From IMG/VR virus record IMGVR_UViG_2872158770_000007: 29,095 nucleotides of DNA; one strand, written 5' to 3'. This document shows, piece by piece, positions 4,449-26,181 of this stretch (position 1 is its first letter; each line of letters starts with the position of its first letter). The notes under the pieces were generated by a model, which was not told where the DNA came from, did not search any database, and saw only the letters and a program-made list of their open reading frames with translations. Position numbers and translations under genes: made by a program. The DNA is from a virus (lineage: Duplodnaviria > Heunggongvirae > Uroviricota > Caudoviricetes).

Positions 4449-9399
<4,951 letters not shown>

Positions 9400-9400
<1 letters not shown>

Positions 9401-10023
9401 TACTTGTATTTCCAGTTCTGATTTTGATTAACTTGACCTAACAGACTAAAGTACTCATCATTTCTATAGTAAGATTGATATACTGAGTTGGCGGCAATTA
9501 ATGCAGGTTGTCTGTCTAATTTCTTATAGACAGAATTCACATATATAGTCATTTCGTTTTGCTTCTGATTTGGATCAGTTACTGCCTGTACATAGTCAAT
9601 AAACCCCGTAAACATGAGCATTGAATCAATTACAGTACTATCATATGGATTGAGAATTACTAACTTGATATTCATCTGTGCATCTTTCAAGAAACCACCA
9701 AGGGCAAGAGCACGAACCGAGGCGTTTACATTGCTAATTTTAAAATTGATAGCATCATTAGACATGCCCTTTTGTTCAGAATATGAAGGTAATGAACCAC
9801 TGATAATGTCGGGGAAACTTATGTACTTATAACCATCCAGATCTATATCAATTAGTGAATCCGTCCAGTGAAAACCATTAGTACCTTTTGGTAGTACATC
9901 AAAACAAGTAACATTAACGCCTAAGCTCATAATTTCCATTAGTGTTAATCTTGTCTTGGTTGTACCTCTGACTAACTTCCAGTACTTAAGAAGATTAGCA
10001 TTAGTATATATACCTGAGTCCAT
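9400..10023 (-). CDS. minor tail protein, lambda gpL-like
   Basis: 207 aa, second gene after the tape measure. Weak collinearity with gpL. Start and stop overlap the neighbouring genes, suggesting coupling. Confidence 0.45.
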
Positions 10024-10580
10024 TAGATGATATTCTCCGTTGCTTTCAATGTAATATTCATGATGTTCCCAATAGGCAATGAATAATCATTGTCTGGATC
10101 TAATACAGCCTCGATCATGAGATTGTTATATTTGAGTGCTTCACTTGCCTGTACTGTATTTTGTAGAGCAGGGAAAATAGTAATTGAAGTACTGGTACGT
10201 TCTACGATTCGATATAGCTTATTGTGATTGGAAAACTGTACCCACTCACCCACAGCTAATGTGTTAGTACTGATAGGTACAACCATATTACCCGGTTTAG
10301 TGAGAGCAGTAGCGGTTACTGCACCAGTCTGTTTACCGTAATATGTACCTGCAAGCCCCAATGACATAGTGAAAGGTTTGCCCTGTGCATATTGAGCTAA
10401 AAAGCTATTCACTTCATTTAGTGATGCAGGATTAAAATTAAGGGTGAACTGAATTTGATAGTATTGAATTCCAGTACTTCTCATGATACGTTGACCTGTC
10501 CATGTTTGATTAGAATAGATCGGTTCAGTACTTTTAATTTGAAAGTTCGTTACTTTTATTTGATTTGAAAAGGATGCCAT
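10023..10580 (-). CDS. minor/distal tail protein, lambda gpM-like
   Basis: 185 aa, first structural gene after the tape measure module. Assignment is by position and weak motif similarity. Confidence 0.4.
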   Translation of the reverse strand: MASFSNQIKVTNFQIKSTEPIYSNQTWTGQRIMRSTGIQYYQIQFTLNFNPASLNEVNSFLAQYAQGKPFTMSLGLAGTYYGKQTGAVTATALTKPGNMVVPISTNTLAVGEWVQFSNHNKLYRIVERTSTSITIFPALQNTVQASEALKYNNLMIEAVLDPDNDYSLPIGNIMNITLKATENII

Positions 10581-11164: not shown

Positions 11165-13378
11165 TTATGTATTACGTTTTTGACTACTTCTCACAGCTTG
11201 AGAAACACTATTGGCGTGTTTCTTAAGCATCTCATTAAATTTCTTGTCATCATCAGCTACATCACCCTGGATGATCAATGGTGCGTTAACGGTAATATCA
11301 CCTGAAGTACTTCCACCTTCTTGTTTATCCAAGAATGCTGTTAATTTCTTATTCGCTTCAGGCTGCACCACTCTCTCGCCCTGCTTAAGTACAAATGATT
11401 TGTTGTCATAACTTGCTGGTAGTTCATCTACCCCGCCATGGAACTGACCAGCAGCAGCACCCTTTGCAGTACTAATAATCGACATACCAAGTGAAAGTAC
11501 TTGTGCATAGTTTGCCAATGAAGCTGGCCAAGGGGTAGCGAGTGCTTGGGCCAATGCTGACTGAATTGAAAGTACTGTCTGTGCAATGCTTATGCTCTTA
11601 CTTAGGGTAAATGCAGCTTGTGCAGCCCCACTACTTTCCCCAAACGCATCAACCATGCCCTGTGATAGTGACTGTGCAGTACTTGAGAAGATACTTAACT
11701 GATCCTGTGCATTCTGGTTACTGATTTGGATGGCCTGTGCATTGTACTTTGCCGTGATCTCAGCTTTACGTTTCTCATAGTCCTCATGGCCTTTCAGCAA
11801 CAACTCATTCTGCTGAAGTTCAGCATTCATAGCATCAGCGTTATCTTTCAACTTCTGATCGGTATCGTTATAGGCTAATGGATTACCACCATTGATACGC
11901 TGATTCTGTTGCTGTGCCAGATACCCCTTCTGATTGTCATTGAGTAGACCGGAACCAATAAGAGCATTGGTATCTTTCAGACCCTGATTAGGATCTTGAT
12001 AACCAACCATTGAATTCAGTAAATCAGTACGTTGTTTAGCACCATATGCAGTAGCGTTCTTTAGCATTTCATCAGGATTGATACCGAGTACTTGAGCACT
12101 ATCGGTGATGGTTTTAAGAAGTGCCTTTTGTTGTCTGTCGAACTGCTGTAGACGTACCTGAAAACCATCTTCCCCAACTTGAGCAAGAGCAGCTTCCAGA
12201 TTACGTTGAGCCTGTAGGCGTTTTGCATCTGCCGCCTTTTGTGCCGCTTCTGCCTGTTTACGTTGTTGTTCTAACTTCTTCGCTGCATCTTCAGCTTCTT
12301 TTGCCTGATCAACCCATCCGCCAGTAGGAGCGGTAGCAACCGCAACATCGGACTTTAGGTTGTTTGCCAGTTCTTCTAAACGTGCCTTAGCCTGAGCGAA
12401 CTCATTACCCTTGTTGCCCTTATCATCCATGATGCCAGTATTGAGTGCTGCACCCTGGTAGTTTAATGCCCCTGCTGTACGTAATTTTTCCCAGATATCC
12501 AACATATCCTGTAGAGAACCCTTGGAAGTTTTAATACGTTCATTCAGATCTTCAAACAAACCTGCCTCGTGAGGTTTTTGATTTGCAGCATCATAGACAC
12601 TGTTCATGGCATTAACTAAAGGTGATAGGCCATCAGCAATAGTACCTTTAATGCTGGTAGTAAGTTTCCCAAGGTTTTTATCGAATTCAGCATATTTTTC
12701 AGCAGCATCATTAGTTACTTCAGCATTTTGTGACTGGATATAGGCTGTAGCTTGAGCCTCATTATTGAACTGCTGAAGAGTACTAATCATGTGGCTTGAG
12801 TCACTGGCTAACGTTTCCATTACGTTAACTATTTCACTCTGTGATTTACCTGCATCACGCATGGCGTAAAAGGTGTGGATCACAGCCTGCATACCACCAT
12901 CAGCCTGTTTTAAGTACTTGTTATAGTCCTGTAGGTTGAGTCCATATTCTTTAAGATCATCGGATACACCACCGCCAGCACGAAAAGCATCACCGAGCTT
13001 ATCCAAGGTATCCTTGTTGAAATCACCAAACTTATCAATCTCAAGACCGAGGCCACTAAACGCCGCTGATAGCTGTTGTAACTGAACCACGGACAATCCG
13101 GTACTCTTACTGATCTGGTTCATTTCACGCACATATTCACGTGATGATTCTACTAATGCTGCCAGGCCACCAATACCAATAGCCGCAGCACCCGCGATCC
13201 CGGTCATAGCAGTACCGAACCCGCCAGCCATACCAGTTATTCGGCCTGTGAACTCTTCAACAATGCCACCAGCAGTACTACCAAATTCCTCTAATGATTC
13301 AGTACCAGACCTTAAAGCACGCTGTAAACCGGAAGAATCACCCGTAATATCTACACGTATTCTATTATTATTTGCCAT
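11165..13378 (-). CDS. tail tape measure protein
   Basis: 737 aa. Gly/Ala-rich N-terminal region (GMAGGFGTAMTGIAGAAAIGIGGLAAL) and long coiled-coil Q/A/K-rich repeats, directly downstream of the G/GT chaperone pair. Length implies a long non-contractile tail. Confidence 0.85.
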   Translation of the reverse strand: MANNNRIRVDITGDSSGLQRALRSGTESLEEFGSTAGGIVEEFTGRITGMAGGFGTAMTGIAGAAAIGIGGLAALVESSREYVREMNQISKSTGLSVVQLQQLSAAFSGLGLEIDKFGDFNKDTLDKLGDAFRAGGGVSDDLKEYGLNLQDYNKYLKQADGGMQAVIHTFYAMRDAGKSQSEIVNVMETLASDSSHMISTLQQFNNEAQATAYIQSQNAEVTNDAAEKYAEFDKNLGKLTTSIKGTIADGLSPLVNAMNSVYDAANQKPHEAGLFEDLNERIKTSKGSLQDMLDIWEKLRTAGALNYQGAALNTGIMDDKGNKGNEFAQAKARLEELANNLKSDVAVATAPTGGWVDQAKEAEDAAKKLEQQRKQAEAAQKAADAKRLQAQRNLEAALAQVGEDGFQVRLQQFDRQQKALLKTITDSAQVLGINPDEMLKNATAYGAKQRTDLLNSMVGYQDPNQGLKDTNALIGSGLLNDNQKGYLAQQQNQRINGGNPLAYNDTDQKLKDNADAMNAELQQNELLLKGHEDYEKRKAEITAKYNAQAIQISNQNAQDQLSIFSSTAQSLSQGMVDAFGESSGAAQAAFTLSKSISIAQTVLSIQSALAQALATPWPASLANYAQVLSLGMSIISTAKGAAAGQFHGGVDELPASYDNKSFVLKQGERVVQPEANKKLTAFLDKQEGGSTSGDITVNAPLIIQGDVADDDKKFNEMLKKHANSVSQAVRSSQKRNT

Positions 13379-13730
13379 TCTTTTTCTTTCCTAATACCTG
13401 AGATTTAATTAACTCCCCTATAGATTTAATATCATTGGATTGAGCCTCTTTAGTTTTTAATTTTCTTTCTTCAGCTTTCTCTGAAGTACTCTTAGTACTA
13501 TCACTAAGCACATCAAGAAAATCAAAATCCTGTACCTTGATACTTTTCCTTGCTTCTGGTGTTAGGTTGCCATTACTGATAGTGGTGTAGTAACACTGGT
13601 ACGCATGTTTCATCATTTCAATCTGCGTACCGGATGGTTCTATAAAAGTATCGTAGATCATAAGCATATTGAGTACATCAGGATCTAAACTAAAGTATTC
13701 TTCAGGTGATAAGCCTCTTTTGTTAACCAT
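13368..13730 (-). CDS. tail assembly chaperone T-like segment, expressed as G-T fusion by -1 frameshift
   Basis: 120-aa ORF in the -1 frame relative to the upstream G-like ORF. Translation across the junction in the -1 frame is open (KKVRGDIELKYFCKMVNKRG...). Confidence 0.55.
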   Translation of the reverse strand: MVNKRGLSPEEYFSLDPDVLNMLMIYDTFIEPSGTQIEMMKHAYQCYYTTISNGNLTPEARKSIKVQDFDFLDVLSDSTKSTSEKAEERKLKTKEAQSNDIKSIGELIKSQVLGKKKNGK

Positions 13731-13762
13731 CTTACAAAAGTACTTTAATTCGATATCACCTC

Positions 13763-14074
13763 TTACTTTTTTTCTACTTCATCTACAGGTTTCGCAGTAT
13801 TGATTAAAGCAATAATTGCTGAGTAAATTTCATTCTGGATTACAAAATCAATAGAGTTAACATTAATTCGTCCATCAATATCTTCTTCTGCGAAGATAGG
13901 ATCACCATTTTCATCTTTTACACATAGGATTAGAGTTTTAGCCACATCAGTGCATTTCTGGAAATCCTGACCATTTGGACGATGAATAAAGATGATTTCA
14001 CCCATTACTTCATGTGGTTTTAATTCTGGTTGTAGTTTTTTCTTCAATTCGTTTAAATTCATTTTCATCTCCAA
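13763..14074 (-). CDS. tail assembly chaperone, lambda gpG-like
   Basis: 103-aa acidic protein between the major tail gene and the tape measure. Ends ...VEKK at a slippery heptamer. Confidence 0.6.
   Translation of the reverse strand: MEMKMNLNELKKKLQPELKPHEVMGEIIFIHRPNGQDFQKCTDVAKTLILCVKDENGDPIFAEEDIDGRINVNSIDFVIQNEIYSAIIALINTAKPVDEVEKK
13766..13772 (-). promoter_or_regulatory. programmed -1 ribosomal frameshift site A AAA AAG (dnaX-type) at the end of the G-like ORF
   Basis: Minus strand reads gta gaa aaa aag taa. Plus strand carries c-ttttttt-c at 13766-13774. The stop codon follows immediately; the -1 frame is open into the T-like ORF. Confidence 0.6.
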
Positions 14075-14107
14075 TAAAAAAGGGAAAGTTGAGCACCTTC
14101 CCTTTAT
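14075..14107 (-). terminator. rho-independent terminator/attenuator after the major tail tube gene
   Basis: Minus-strand RNA: aaagggaagg-ugcucaa-cuuucccuu followed by a U-run (plus-strand A-run 14075-14080). Imperfect ~8-bp GC-containing stem. Confidence 0.55.
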
Positions 14108-14113
14108 TTATTA

Positions 14114-14587
14114 TTATTCGCCCGATTCTGGTTTTGGAGTAATCAGACCTGAATCAATTGCTTCACCATCAACTGCAAGGGTGAAAGTCTTAGTTACTAC
14201 TTCATCTTTATCACCACCGATAGTGGTACTTGAAACAAAGCAGGTATAAATTACAAAGAAACCTTCTTTTTTAGTTGCATCGGTAAAATAGCTTAGTTTT
14301 ACCTGACAACGTTTCTGATCGTCTGCAAGTTGTTCTAAATTCTGATGTACTGCATTATCTGGTAAGTAGTTAACTGCAAGAGAAATGTCCGGGATTGACT
14401 TAGTACCCAATAGCTTACGATCATAAGCATTATTGAATGTTTTTACGCTAATTACAGTACTTTCAAAGCCTGAAGTACTGAAGGTGTTTACCTCTGGTAC
14501 TTCTACAAAGTCAGTAGCAACTGTTTTACCAGCACTTGAACCTACTTCTACAGTAAGGTTAGCACCGGAAAAAATATCCATAGCCAT
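14114..14587 (-). CDS. major tail tube protein
   Basis: 157 aa, immediately upstream of the G/GT chaperones (conserved position of the major tail protein). Followed by a terminator. N-terminal ~145 aa paralogous to the N-terminus of the 883-aa protein. Confidence 0.65.
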   Translation of the reverse strand: MAMDIFSGANLTVEVGSSAGKTVATDFVEVPEVNTFSTSGFESTVISVKTFNNAYDRKLLGTKSIPDISLAVNYLPDNAVHQNLEQLADDQKRCQVKLSYFTDATKKEGFFVIYTCFVSSTTIGGDKDEVVTKTFTLAVDGEAIDSGLITPKPESGE

Positions 14588-14645
14588 AGTTTTATATCCT
14601 TATAAGAAAATTTTATTGGAGTGAATCCGTTCACCCCGTTTATAT

Positions 14646-17297
14646 TTATTTATTATTTAATAGCTGTTGTACTAAATCTTTTAGCTGATTAATTTCTTCT
14701 TGTTGGGCTTGAATAGCTCCCATCAAGTCCATCACTATTGGATTTAAATCAACACGTGGATGATCACGAGTGACAATCTCCCCTTCTATTTCAACTGTTT
14801 CTTCATCATGCTTAATGTACTGCGGAGCAGTCAACTCAGCATCTTCGGCGATAACACCAAACCTAACCCTTTCTTGTTCATCATCCTTGTAGATAAACGT
14901 TACTAAATCTTGTGACATTATCCGATCTAATGCTTCAACTGGATTTGCTGGAGTTATGTCTCTTTTAAACTCACGACCTGATGTACCTTGAGCTTGCATT
15001 ACTAACCATCCAAACCATGTTGTACCGTTCCCGCCTCGTACTCTTAAAGTACCACCACCGTCTATCTGAAGCTGAGAGCGATTTGCCCCTGGGTATCTTT
15101 GCATGTGCAATAAAGGGGAATATTTTTCACTATAGTTAATACCTGAGTCACCTGGCCCTGCATACATACCGTTAAAGGTGATGGTATTGGCATCTGTCGG
15201 TCCCGAAACAGCGGTATTAGTCATCCATCCTGATTGAACATCAGTTAGGATCGTTCCAGTCGGCCCTTTTAGCCCCCATAGTTTATCCTCTGCACCATTT
15301 TCAGAAATAAAAAGGGTGAGATCAGCCTGTCCAGTCTGTCCCATCGTTTTACCAACCCGAAAACCACCAGATATTTCAGTTGATGTACCAATGTTGCATA
15401 TCGAACGAATACGCCCTCCAGTTACATAACTACCAATTGCCGTAGAGGAAGGGGAAGAAGCAATAACATCCCATTGAGGACTAACTGAAGTACGACTACT
15501 CAGCAAGTTTTCAACCCAGCGTTTGGTAGTCGCGTCAGAATCAGAGACAGGATCTCCTGCTAAAGAAGTTGCACCCGTAGGACGAATCGCAGGCCATAAC
15601 TCAGCCTGAGTCTTAACACCAGTACCGCCCTGCGGAATTGCTAATGCTTTCCAGCCAGTGAAAGCACCCGCAATATATGTAGCTGAACCCCATTGCCCTC
15701 CATCATAAACCACTAATGCAGCGGAAGAATCAGCGGATTTAATAGTTGTTAAATTACTACCTTGATTAAAGCGATCCACCTGAAAGTTTAGGCGAGCACT
15801 CAAAGCATCTGTAGCCCCTGTCCCCCCCTGACCTATACCTAAAGCAATCCATCCAGTACCAGTACTTGCACCCCATGCCCCGTTATCCTGAATTCGGATA
15901 CGGTTAGTCAGGTCATTACTCATCAGATCGGTGTACGTAGCACCCTGAGTCAAACGGTTCACCTGTAGGTTAGTACGTGCTGTAGAGAGACTGGATAGAT
16001 CAGAAAGGTTACTCGCTTTCTTCATGGAAGCGGAATCAAGGGAAGTAATACTGTCAGCTAAAGCCGTTACCTCTGCATCTACTTCATCCATTGAGTAAAC
16101 AGCAAGGTTAATACGTGCTTCTTCCACGTCCCCCAGATCACTTAGATTACCTGCTATCGTAAGCTGGGCATCATCTGTAACCTTCCCTAAGCCAACATCA
16201 GTACTGGTAAGTACTACATCCTCACTGAGTACATGACCGTTGACCATACGTGTATCAGGTACTGAACCTGTATCTTCACTACTCAGTACTACATTTTCAC
16301 TAAGTACATGACCGTTCACTGTACGCGTGTCAGGTACTGAACCTGTATCTTCACTACTCAGTACTATATCTTCACTGAGTACATGACCATTAACTGTCCG
16401 TGTATCTGGTACAGAGCCGGTATCAGTACTGGTAAGTACTACATCCTCACTTAGAGGCTTACCATTCACAGTACGTGTATCAGGTACTGAACCTGTATCT
16501 TCACTGTTCAGTACTAAATTGGCCGTGAGTGCATGGCCGTTGATGGTACGTGTAAGGGGTACGTATCGCCCGTCCATCTGTGTAGCGGTATATATGCGTG
16601 TCCAGGCGGTTGTAGCGTTCTTTGCATAGATACTTAGAGTACCCGTCTTTGTCATCGCAAGAGAACTTACAGTAGTGCCATCTACAAGCCCTACTCCCAT
16701 CAGATCCGCCCCGGCAGGATTGCCTGCTTGAGATGATGGTACTTTGATGAAGCTGTTACCCGTAGGTACTGATGGTGAGTACTGAGGTACATCCGTAGTG
16801 TTCGAACCTAAACCGTAGTCCCCCTGATAGATTGGCGATAGTGCGTTAATGGTCATTGCACGTGCGATCACATCATGTGGGGCAAAACTGTATGCCTTGG
16901 TTACTACTGAACCTTTATCACCGTCCAACTTATAAGAGGTGATATAACCATTCACCATCGCATAAGTAATGGTATTTTCATCCTTATTCATCTGGTACTG
17001 AATGATGATCTGGAAAAGCTGCTGAGACTTAGCGGCATTATCCAAGAATTGATGTGTAGGATCATCAGGTAGGTAGTTAACTACAATATCAAATGGTGCT
17101 ACTGATTTATCAGATAGTAGTACTGTCCTGTAATCACTATCATACGTTTCAAAATTATTTGCTTCTGAATTTATTGTTAAGGTTGGAAAAGTATTAATCT
17201 GTTTAATTACTACATTGCCTGCTCCCTGTGGTGTTCTGTTACCAATATCAGCATTATACTGTACTGATAATTCTCTTCCTGAGAAAATATCACTCAT
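14646..17297 (-). CDS. tail-tube-domain protein fused to a repeat-containing fibre with C-terminal intramolecular chaperone (peptidase S74-like) domain
   Basis: 883 aa. Residues 1-150 align with the 157-aa tail tube protein (DIFSG..L.V, NTF.T, VNYLPDD..HQ.L, GDK..VVTK). Five tandem 25-aa repeats (PDTRTVNGHVLSEDVVLSSEDTGSV). Phage-fibre motifs GQGGTGATDALSARLNFQV and PQGGTGVKT. C-terminus SGREFKRDITP...RFGVIAEDAEL...QEEINQLKDL resembles the self-cleaving chaperone of tail fibres and endosialidases. Confidence 0.6.
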   Translation of the reverse strand: MSDIFSGRELSVQYNADIGNRTPQGAGNVVIKQINTFPTLTINSEANNFETYDSDYRTVLLSDKSVAPFDIVVNYLPDDPTHQFLDNAAKSQQLFQIIIQYQMNKDENTITYAMVNGYITSYKLDGDKGSVVTKAYSFAPHDVIARAMTINALSPIYQGDYGLGSNTTDVPQYSPSVPTGNSFIKVPSSQAGNPAGADLMGVGLVDGTTVSSLAMTKTGTLSIYAKNATTAWTRIYTATQMDGRYVPLTRTINGHALTANLVLNSEDTGSVPDTRTVNGKPLSEDVVLTSTDTGSVPDTRTVNGHVLSEDIVLSSEDTGSVPDTRTVNGHVLSENVVLSSEDTGSVPDTRMVNGHVLSEDVVLTSTDVGLGKVTDDAQLTIAGNLSDLGDVEEARINLAVYSMDEVDAEVTALADSITSLDSASMKKASNLSDLSSLSTARTNLQVNRLTQGATYTDLMSNDLTNRIRIQDNGAWGASTGTGWIALGIGQGGTGATDALSARLNFQVDRFNQGSNLTTIKSADSSAALVVYDGGQWGSATYIAGAFTGWKALAIPQGGTGVKTQAELWPAIRPTGATSLAGDPVSDSDATTKRWVENLLSSRTSVSPQWDVIASSPSSTAIGSYVTGGRIRSICNIGTSTEISGGFRVGKTMGQTGQADLTLFISENGAEDKLWGLKGPTGTILTDVQSGWMTNTAVSGPTDANTITFNGMYAGPGDSGINYSEKYSPLLHMQRYPGANRSQLQIDGGGTLRVRGGNGTTWFGWLVMQAQGTSGREFKRDITPANPVEALDRIMSQDLVTFIYKDDEQERVRFGVIAEDAELTAPQYIKHDEETVEIEGEIVTRDHPRVDLNPIVMDLMGAIQAQQEEINQLKDLVQQLLNNK
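16180..16560. repeat. tandem 75-bp direct repeats (about 5 copies) inside the fibre gene
   Basis: The unit tcaggtactgaacctgtatcttcact... recurs at 16255, 16330, (variant) 16405 and 16480. It encodes the 25-aa protein repeat. Confidence 0.85.
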
Positions 17298-17314
17298 CCT
17301 TTATATCCTTTTAG

Positions 17315-17706
17315 TTATCTTGTCTTTTCCGTAACTTGAATATTTATCGTAAAGGATAGGGAAACCGAGCCAGTTATAGGATCTGTGACAATATCGGATT
17401 GTTCATAAGAACACGAAAGCATTATTAAACCTGCATCACTGAATGCTGAAGTTTTCTCTTTATCAAAAGTACTAATAATCTGATCATAAGTGATGGATGG
17501 GGCTGTATTACCTGATTCTGGTTTAGGGGAAATCAGATACTGAATTGCAAAGTTACCTGCCCGGCGTTCATTGCTGAAACTTAAACTCGTTAATGAGTAA
17601 TCAAAAGCAATTTGTTCAAATACATCAACATCACGTGATACTGTCAGATTCTTAGTAGCATTGATAAGCTGCTTCATCGTATTCCGTACTTTTTGTACTA
17701 ACATCA
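17315..17706 (-). CDS. hypothetical head-tail joining protein
   Basis: Located between capsid and tail genes. Start moved to the ATG at 17706, just after the upstream stop; the track's N-terminal 26 residues overlap the previous gene in another frame. Confidence 0.35.
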
Positions 17707-17708
17707 TA

Positions 17709-18032
17709 TTAGTAGTCCTCTGCAAATGAAGCACCAGCAGAAGTACGGAAATAGCAATTAACCATACCTGATAGATCATCTTCAATGTTATAGATTGTCT
17801 GGTTTACACCATCAATGATTAGTACTGTACCAATTGCCACGTTTGCGGTTATTAGATCGTCCTTTCTGATTGTTAGGTATGTTTCCACGCTTTCGATAAA
17901 TCCACCTGCCGCCTCAATAGAAACGGGAAGTACTTCTACTATTCCTGTAAAAGTACTTCCCGTACAAGTTTGGATAGACTGACCGAAAGCATTTAGAAAC
18001 GCATCACACTGCGTATCTTTAAATACTCTCAT
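17709..18032 (-). CDS. hypothetical head completion/connector protein
   Basis: 107-aa ORF immediately downstream of the capsid gene. Assignment is positional only. Confidence 0.35.
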   Translation of the reverse strand: MRVFKDTQCDAFLNAFGQSIQTCTGSTFTGIVEVLPVSIEAAGGFIESVETYLTIRKDDLITANVAIGTVLIIDGVNQTIYNIEDDLSGMVNCYFRTSAGASFAEDY

Positions 18033-18045
18033 TATCTAATCCTTA

Positions 18046-23388
<5,343 letters not shown>

Positions 23389-23796
23389 TAGACTGGCCCC
23401 CTGAATCTCCAGACAACCAGTATCACTTAAATAAGTGATAGTCTTAATACTAGTTTTTAGACTAGTCATTGGAGTACAGATGATTGATGTCTTAGGGCCG
23501 GAGAAACGCAGACGGCGTACCACACAGGAAAAGATCGCAATTGTTCAGCAGAGCTTTGAACCGGGGATGACGGTCTCCCTCGTTGCCCGGCAACATGGTG
23601 TAGCAGCCAGCCAGTTATTTCTCTGGCGTAAGCAATACCAGGAAGGAAGTCTTACTGCTGTGGCCGCCGGAGAACAGGTTGTTCCTGCCTCTGAACTTGC
23701 TGCCGCCATGAAGCAGATTAAAGAACTCCAGAGCCTGCTCGGCAAGAAAACGATGGAAAATGAACTCCTCAAAGAAGCCGTTGAATATGGACGGGC

Positions 23797-26181
<2,385 letters not shown>

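Follow-up and report, generated by a model that had tools for sequence, protein, structure and literature searches.

We analysed a 29,095-nt stretch of viral DNA assigned to the Caudoviricetes (IMG/VR record IMGVR_UViG_2872158770_000007; hereafter 'the window'), whose minus strand carries the structural module of a siphophage, and focused on two adjoining genes of its tail region. The shorter gene (hereafter 'short') encodes what its sequence and setting identify as the major tail tube protein. The longer gene (hereafter 'long') lies directly upstream and encodes a protein that begins with a domain of the same family (the N-domain) and continues into a fibre with a C-terminal chaperone. The two genes, the parts of the long protein and the hairpins that follow each gene are located as follows.

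14646..17297, minus strand: long gene, 883 aa, comprising a tube-like N-domain, a linker domain, repeats, a fibre shaft and an S74 chaperone
16854..17297, minus strand: long aa 1-148, paralogue of the adjoining tail tube protein, with a predicted tube-protein fold
16551..16853, minus strand: long aa 149-249, Gly/Pro-rich linker and domain conserved in the family (GDYGVGS..PQY..GNSFIKVP..TAWTRIYT; mean pairwise distance 0.46)
16176..16550, minus strand: long aa 250-374, five 25-aa tandem fibre repeats
14982..16175, minus strand: long aa 375-772, fibre shaft with NLSD..AR.NL and QGGTG motifs
14649..14981, minus strand: long aa 773-883, Peptidase_S74 intramolecular chaperone, with a predicted autocleavage site directly before S773 and K778 as its partner
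14618..14637, minus strand: 8-bp, GC-rich hairpin after the long stop codon (-10.5 kcal/mol)
14114..14587, minus strand: short gene, 157 aa, major tail tube protein with PF08813 and phrog_158 matches
14079..14105, minus strand: terminator-like hairpin and T-run between the short gene and the chaperone gene

A tube-like domain fused to a fibre

An initial annotation of the window had proposed that the two adjoining genes have an N-terminal domain of about 145 aa in common, and sequence comparison bears this out. Residues 4-138 of short align with residues 3-139 of long at 42/137 identities (31%, BLASTP E 3e-19), and profiles of the two families, built from 27 loci each, match over 137 columns with 99.9% probability (hhalign, E 3.7e-32). 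The families are separated by one small indel in these 137 columns, with no structural element lost. Both carry M-x-DIF-x-G at the extreme N-terminus, and the motifs DIFSG, NTF, VNYLPD..H and GDK..VVTK all fall inside aligned blocks of the two proteins. The short protein matches Pfam Phage_tail_3 (PF08813, 34 bits for a cutoff of 24.2) and phrog_158 'major tail protein' (5.8e-19). Residues 2-150 of long also match phrog_158 (1.3e-16); they have no match in Pfam or NCBIfam, and a distant member of the family (P0114) passes PF16461.

A structural model of the long N-domain was built on a 95-sequence alignment (pLDDT 70.7), the single-sequence AlphaFold model of aa 1-200 being unusable (pLDDT 31). 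The model has the β-sandwich of a tube protein with one helix and a long β-hairpin, and its nearest structural neighbours are all tail tube proteins; Foldseek matches it to lambda gpV and to the tail core of YDC107 at E 2e-7. The structure check suggested in the initial annotation, where a fold other than that of a tube protein would have spoken against it, thus returned a tube fold. Profile searches of the PDB with the two tube families gave nothing significant. One lead, PDB 9occ_B ('putative neck whiskers protein'), was rejected because it is the Sf11 tube protein under an old annotation. Taken together, sequence comparison and modelling confirm the two N-domains as paralogues with a predicted tube-protein fold.

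Downstream of the N-domain, the long protein has the features of a fibre. Residues 149-249, which presumably form a splaying linker and the start of the trimeric shaft, have no detectable relative among solved structures in a PDB profile search. The five 25-aa repeats and GGTG-type fibre motifs that had been described earlier are both present: the repeats (consensus RTVNGHxLSEDVVLSSEDTGSVPDT) span aa 250-374 and are seen by TRF at 16210-16516 as a 75-nt period with 4.1 copies (score 383), and QGGTG motifs occur at aa 490 and aa 556. The distal shaft is homologous to enterobacterial lateral tail fibres, namely DT57C LtfB and coliphage 'lateral tail fiber' proteins. More specifically, the last 112 aa are homologous to DT57C LtfB, the L-shaped fibre of a T5-like phage (PDB 8hqz_d; whole-protein E 1e-40). 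A Pfam search found no Ig or FN3 domain in the long protein.

S74 chaperones drive the trimerisation and folding of a fibre before assembly and then cut themselves off. The S74-like C-terminus recognised in the initial annotation scores above the Pfam threshold (PF13884 at aa 774-822, 34.1 bits for a cutoff of 22), and the Ser-Lys dyad on which that assignment had been made to depend is found at the domain start, where S773 and K778 show S-x4-K spacing and align with SGIEYK of DT57C LtfB. Among aligned family members, the Ser is conserved in 23/24, the Lys in 24/24 and G814 in 26/26. The S-x4-K dyad, the G-x-IA-E/Q motif and the location at the extreme C-terminus of a fibre are likewise found in the S74 domains of endosialidase and T5 pb1, whereas the usual Asp after the Ser (SD) is replaced here by Gly (SG), as it is in DT57C LtfB. 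From the domain and its dyad, we predict autocleavage before S773.

Gene order, distribution and modularity of the family

The module reads, in order, large terminase, a 176-aa connector, portal, protease-capsid fusion, a 107-aa FII/Hc1-like protein (Hc107), a 130-aa protein, the 883-aa long gene, the 157-aa short gene, tail assembly chaperone (G/GT), a 737-aa tape measure, distal tail protein (Dit), other tip proteins and a gpJ-like central fibre. The tail genes that bear on the argument are the following.

17315-17707: 130-aa protein with the position and size of a tail terminator
13368..14074, minus strand: tail assembly chaperone G, and GT by a -1 frameshift; the chaperone is phrog_344
11165..13378, minus strand: tape measure protein, 737 aa (phrog_13674, 5e-86)
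10023..10580, minus strand: Dit (phrog_1302, 8e-17)

This order agrees with the earlier placement of the short gene in the canonical position of a major tail protein, as it is followed by the phrog_344 chaperone, a slippery site and then the tape measure. The slippery heptamer A_AAA_AAG (13766-13772, minus strand) overlaps the last codons of the G open reading frame (ORF) just 5' of its stop, and the -1 frame past it is open into a 120-aa T segment that overlaps the tape measure start. In every locus examined, the short gene is directly upstream of the G/GT chaperone and tape measure, with the long gene one position further upstream. Both belong to one operon and have the same ribosome-binding site, TAAGGAT, which is the generic site of this phage; the comparison of sites is uninformative on the long:short stoichiometry. 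The terminator role of the 130-aa protein is presumed: no relative of it came to light in Pfam, PHROGs, NCBIfam or the PDB, even with a 25-sequence profile as query. The lambda tail terminator, gpU, has 131 aa. The window contains no other side-fibre gene.

On the head side, the window and all related loci have a single ORF (614 aa, 18046-19890) that encodes both the prohead protease (Peptidase_S78) and the HK97-fold major capsid protein; the portal gene overlaps it at its end. When loci are compared, the head module (portal, capsid) and the tail module recombine independently of each other (rank correlation ~0.3), and the 107-aa FII-like gene travels with the tail module.

Because a word-index protein search gave just 7 fragments of the family, an exhaustive HMMER search was used instead, in which residues 1-150 retrieved 134 representatives. 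Of the 133 that were examined, 106 are proteins of 400-1563 aa with the domain at residues 1 to ~148, and the ~27 others are mostly plain tube proteins of ~150 aa. The family comprises at least 106 clusters at 50% identity and is found in Enterobacteriaceae prophages and in metagenomes. Two IMG/VR scans provided ~150 loci with the order portal, capsid, Hc107, 130-aa protein, long, short, G/GT, tape measure and Dit, which is invariant wherever a locus had enough DNA for it to be judged. A single-protein genome scan returned only 3 close relatives, in Scandinavium, Pluralibacter and Buttiauxella, and a megablast search of complete E. coli genomes and plasmids with the locus gave no match. Exact protein matches instead trace the window to Shigella sonnei: >100 contigs of this species, among them the 53G chromosome, encode the identical 883-aa protein.

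The prophage in the window is defective and cannot make virions. IS2 (23388-24719) splits the large terminase gene into 24679-25122 and 21888-23348, and IS911 (7391-8640) interrupts the gpJ-like central fibre gene, which is intact (1100 aa) in one S. sonnei contig (L007). Both insertion sequences share 99% identity with copies in E. coli/Shigella. In one S. sonnei assembly (L006, about 16176-18789), the tail module breaks off behind a 151-aa gene and genes for Mu-type transposase A and B come next, which looks like a transposable prophage inserted into this prophage. A defective, IS-ridden prophage is where an annotation or assembly artefact, or a decaying pseudogene fusion, might be expected; such an origin of the long gene is effectively refuted by the identical ORF on so many S. 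sonnei contigs, by intact fused ORFs of 560-1560 aa in ~150 divergent viral contigs and by the 106 clusters.

Within the family, the ~250 N-terminal residues are conserved and the distal parts are exchanged between members: the repeat region occurs in 65/133, an S74 tip in 25 and T4 gp36-type fibre domains in others. A conserved N-terminus joined to swapped distal parts is the usual signature of a virion-anchoring domain. In some lineages, including L077-L082 and 'Escherichia phage DCP80' (L001; PQ671644.1, 763-17287), the fibre is split over two genes. L077-L079, L082 (9001-14040) and L001 encode a tube-fibre protein of ~560-700 aa, then a separate distal fibre of ~2.9 kb and then the short gene, an arrangement that recalls LtfA/LtfB of DT57C.

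DCP80 is also the only one of 50,697 deposited phage genomes in which we found the N-domain. Its record (141 kb) is classified in the Tevenvirinae, yet it holds a complete siphophage head-tail module of this clade, whose 698-aa tube-fibre, 745-aa distal-fibre and 164-aa tube proteins are entered as hypothetical; it looks like a chimera of two phages. In public databases, the long protein is labelled 'tail fiber domain-containing protein' or S74 domain protein and the short protein 'phage tail tube protein', and the tube-like N-domain is without annotation there and in any deposited phage genome. Literature searches found no description of a tube-fibre fusion, of fibres along siphophage tails, of DCP80 or of this S. 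sonnei prophage.

Assignment and placement of the two paralogues

The two paralogues evolve under different constraints. Among the tail proteins of 52 complete loci, short varies least (mean pairwise distance 0.39) and the long N-domain most, level with the tape measure (0.55). Measured on one common set of 27 loci, column entropy is 1.00 bits for short versus 1.64 bits for the long N-domain, with the greatest relaxation in residues 43-72, which form the predicted long β-hairpin, and in residues 1-10. In siphophage tubes, ring-to-ring contacts are made by the hairpin and N-terminal elements, with the β2-β3 loop folded over the ring below it (PMC8718954). The short gene is followed by a terminator (AAAGGGAAGG...CCTTCCCTTTTTT, 14079-14105) that also follows it in most of the related loci that were folded. 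Such a terminator is the usual device for keeping the major tail protein above the downstream chaperone and tape measure. Judged from its conservation and the conserved terminator behind it, the short paralogue is the major tube protein.

A second hairpin (7-13 bp, GC-rich) follows the long stop codon at the same position in ~30 related loci (for example L025, L054, L063 and L085). Its stems are unrelated in sequence and have no adjoining U-tract, and an invariant ATAAGGA ribosome-binding site comes next. RNAalifold found no pairs in this long-short intergenic hairpin, because the MAFFT alignment had its stem arms out of register. Possible roles of the hairpin are control of the long:short expression ratio or mRNA stabilisation.

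Three loci (L161, L163 and L165, about 5250-6460) have no long gene and keep the rest of the tail module. There, the neck genes are followed directly by short, in the order capsid, 90-aa gene, 147-aa gene and tube, and the tube protein is 53% identical to that of the window. These loci represent a natural deletion or a pre-insertion control. Because they lack the long gene, short alone can build the tube, and the long protein is accessory, as would be any fibre-bearing ring that it forms.

To place the long protein, we compared pairwise distance matrices of the tail proteins by partial rank correlations controlling for all other tail proteins in the 52 loci. The whole long N-domain shows its strongest coupling to the short tube protein (partial r 0.40). 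This exceeds its coupling to its own mid-domain (0.22) and to the upstream gene (0.20), so that simple linkage is not the explanation. At the resolution of residue windows, residues 61-100 co-vary with short (r 0.44-0.47), residues 101-150 do so more weakly, and residues 21-60 co-vary with Dit (r 0.38-0.43, partial Mantel p ~0.0003), whose gene is 6-7 kb away. The Dit signal persists after de-duplication to 35 loci (r 0.36, p 0.001). The 130-aa neck-region protein has no consistent co-variation with windows of the long N-domain, and the chaperone has none with the N-domain (partial r 0.02). This pattern is suggestive of a polar in-line ring that contacts Dit on one side and the first ordinary tube ring on the other.

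We hypothesize that the long N-domain forms a dedicated in-line ring, or a few rings, at the distal tube-tip junction, and assign this reading a probability of roughly 45%. In such an assembly, the S74 chaperone would trimerise and fold the fibre in the cytoplasm and then cut itself off before S773, leaving a mature trimer with three tube-type domains on flexible Gly/Pro-rich linkers. If the trimer is indeed folded before assembly, as its chaperone suggests, the unit that enters the tail carries three tube domains, and two units would complete a ring: the tube-type domains would enter the tube lattice in line, in place of the 157-aa protein, with two trimers making one hexameric ring. At the distal end, the face that includes residues ~21-60 would rest on Dit, and the ordinary tube protein would continue from the other face. 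The fibres would project beside the gpJ-like central fibre and provide a reversible first binding to the cell surface, as the side fibres of T5 and lambda do.

The initial annotation had proposed a tail shaft decorated with fibres built covalently onto a tube-subunit fold. The fusion, the predicted fold and the chaperone stand; decoration of the whole shaft does not follow from them, since the faster evolution of the long N-domain, the absence of the gene in a sub-lineage, the Dit co-variation and the T5 and lambda precedents let a distal ring fit at least as well. In the shaft-wide arrangement, long would co-polymerise with short throughout the ~110-nm tube, as SPP1 gp17.1* does, and the tail would bristle with many trimeric fibres. 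Every tube element is kept in the N-domain, including the N-terminal arm motif, the N-domain as a whole co-varies best with short, and the two genes have the same ribosome-binding site in one transcription unit upstream of the terminator. The long gene is also dispensable, as gp17.1* is, and a trimer formed beforehand could join the growing tube at any point. We nevertheless regard this arrangement as unlikely. An interchangeable subunit should be as constrained as short, yet the N-domain is more variable, and most relaxed exactly in the inter-ring hairpin and the N-terminus; the signal between residues 21-60 and Dit would be unexpected if only ~1 ring in 27 touched Dit; and placing an 883-aa chain at each of ~160 lattice positions would be costly. 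Moreover, wherever the side fibres of a siphophage have been structurally defined, they are fixed at the tube-tip junction, and no shaft-wide morphology was found in the literature searches. Were it nonetheless true, tens of self-processed trimeric receptor-binding fibres would be covalent with tube subunits and the entire tail would be an adhesion organ; neither this morphology nor the underlying assembly logic, from pre-trimerised tube subunits, has been described in a phage.

The faster evolution of the long N-domain relative to the tube protein could also mean that this tube-like domain sits outside the tube as a collar, as the anchors of lambda and T5 do, or that it serves in assembly only, for example by docking to the G/GT chaperone. 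We consider this quite doubtful, as the domain is 31% identical to the adjoining tube protein and keeps all lattice-forming elements, known tube-fold domains are in-line rings (Dit, T5 p140, T4 gp48/gp54), and co-variation with the chaperone is absent.

Several points weigh against the distal ring itself. The structural model of the N-domain is of moderate confidence (pLDDT 70.7), and in every family member the position and copy number of the long protein are deduced from sequence only. The co-variation analysis is exploratory: several windows were compared, partial Mantel tests ignore phylogeny and effect sizes are moderate. The short tube protein itself has weaker Dit signals (r 0.2-0.27). 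With long and short in one operon and under the same TAAGGAT site, a low copy number of long is presumed, and two fibres per ring would be an unusual number. Finally, the long gene adjoins the neck genes, outside the tip module, and its residues 101-150 co-vary weakly with the FII-like Hc107 (r 0.2-0.28).

These last two points would suit a ring at the other end of the tube, in which long would be the last tube ring under the terminator and its fibres a collar or whiskers near the head. Such a neck-proximal ring is improbable, because the protein in the terminator position shows no consistent co-variation, the Dit signal is stronger than that of Hc107 and tandem duplication accounts for the adjacency to the tube gene. 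In a tail of ~110 nm (scaled from lambda by the 737-aa tape measure), neck fibres could not reach the cell together with the tip, and the lateral fibres homologous to the distal part of the protein work at the tip.

Relation to known side-fibre attachments

The three pb1 fibres of T5 are held by a p132 collar. This collar encircles p140, a tube-protein duplicate that makes up the single ring separating the tube from Dit; the authors of that work state that other siphophages must anchor their fibres differently (PMC10038345). The collar of Ur-lambda lies where gpV meets gpM and is a 12-mer of the first 94 residues of Stf, with linkers of ~10 residues connecting each trimeric fibre to its three collar domains (PMC12617516). 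Either system, p140, p132 and pb1 or the Stf collar and fibre, would be the functional equal of the proposed long protein, which condenses it into one polypeptide. Both rely on a collar around the tube, whereas the anchor proposed here would be part of the tube, at a predicted ring position.

More specifically, in the system represented by T5 p140/p132/pb1 and DT57C LtfC/LtfA/LtfB (PMC10038345, PMC10713586), T5 uses three separate proteins, whereas here there is one chain, and no p132/LtfC-type Ig-like collar gene lies between the neck and tape measure genes or anywhere else in the tail module. T5 p140 is a tandem double domain that forms an undecorated trimer, in contrast to the single tube domain covalently fused to a fibre seen here, and the T5 tube paralogues are 9% identical compared to 31% in the window. 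Lambda Stf is similar in that its anchor is fused to the N-terminus of a trimeric fibre, with three anchors per trimer, short flexible linkers and attachment at the tube-Dit junction (here a prediction). It differs in that its anchor is a 94-residue β-sheet/helix domain forming a 12-mer outside gpV/gpM, whereas that of long is a tube paralogue predicted to lie in the lattice, with 6 domains and 2 fibres.

The tube proteins lambda gpV, T5 pb6 and SPP1 gp17.1* carry external domains at the C-terminus of the fold, which faces outward (PMC8718954). Like the fibre of long, the FN3 domain of SPP1 gp17.1* (made by frameshift, 3:1), the Ig-like domains of gpV and pb6 and the extension of YSD1_22 are dispensable C-terminal extensions on the tail exterior (PMC8718954). 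In these tube proteins, the extension is a single monomeric Ig/FN3 domain of ~100 aa on the major tube protein itself, whereas long would present a trimeric receptor-binding fibre of ~735 aa (~620 after cleavage) that ends in a self-cleaving chaperone. Furthermore, gp17.1* is produced from the major tube gene by frameshift, whereas long is a separate, faster-evolving paralogue with its own start codon and ribosome-binding site. The family combines a T5-like tube duplicate, an Stf-like fusion of anchor and fibre and a gpV-like outward C-terminal extension.

We infer that an old tandem duplication of the tail tube gene gave rise to a copy that is now the N-terminal anchor of a modular lateral tail fibre. 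Solved examples of siphophage side-fibre attachment represent only two modes, that of T5, where the collar surrounds p140, and that of lambda with its Stf collar; a fibre built directly onto a tube-lattice subunit suggests a third, undescribed mode. Such a mode raises the questions of how a pre-formed trimer enters a six-fold ring, what confines it to particular rings and whether the long protein helps to nucleate tube growth on Dit. With its conserved 250-aa anchor and swappable tips, the family is a natural scaffold for retargeting host range.

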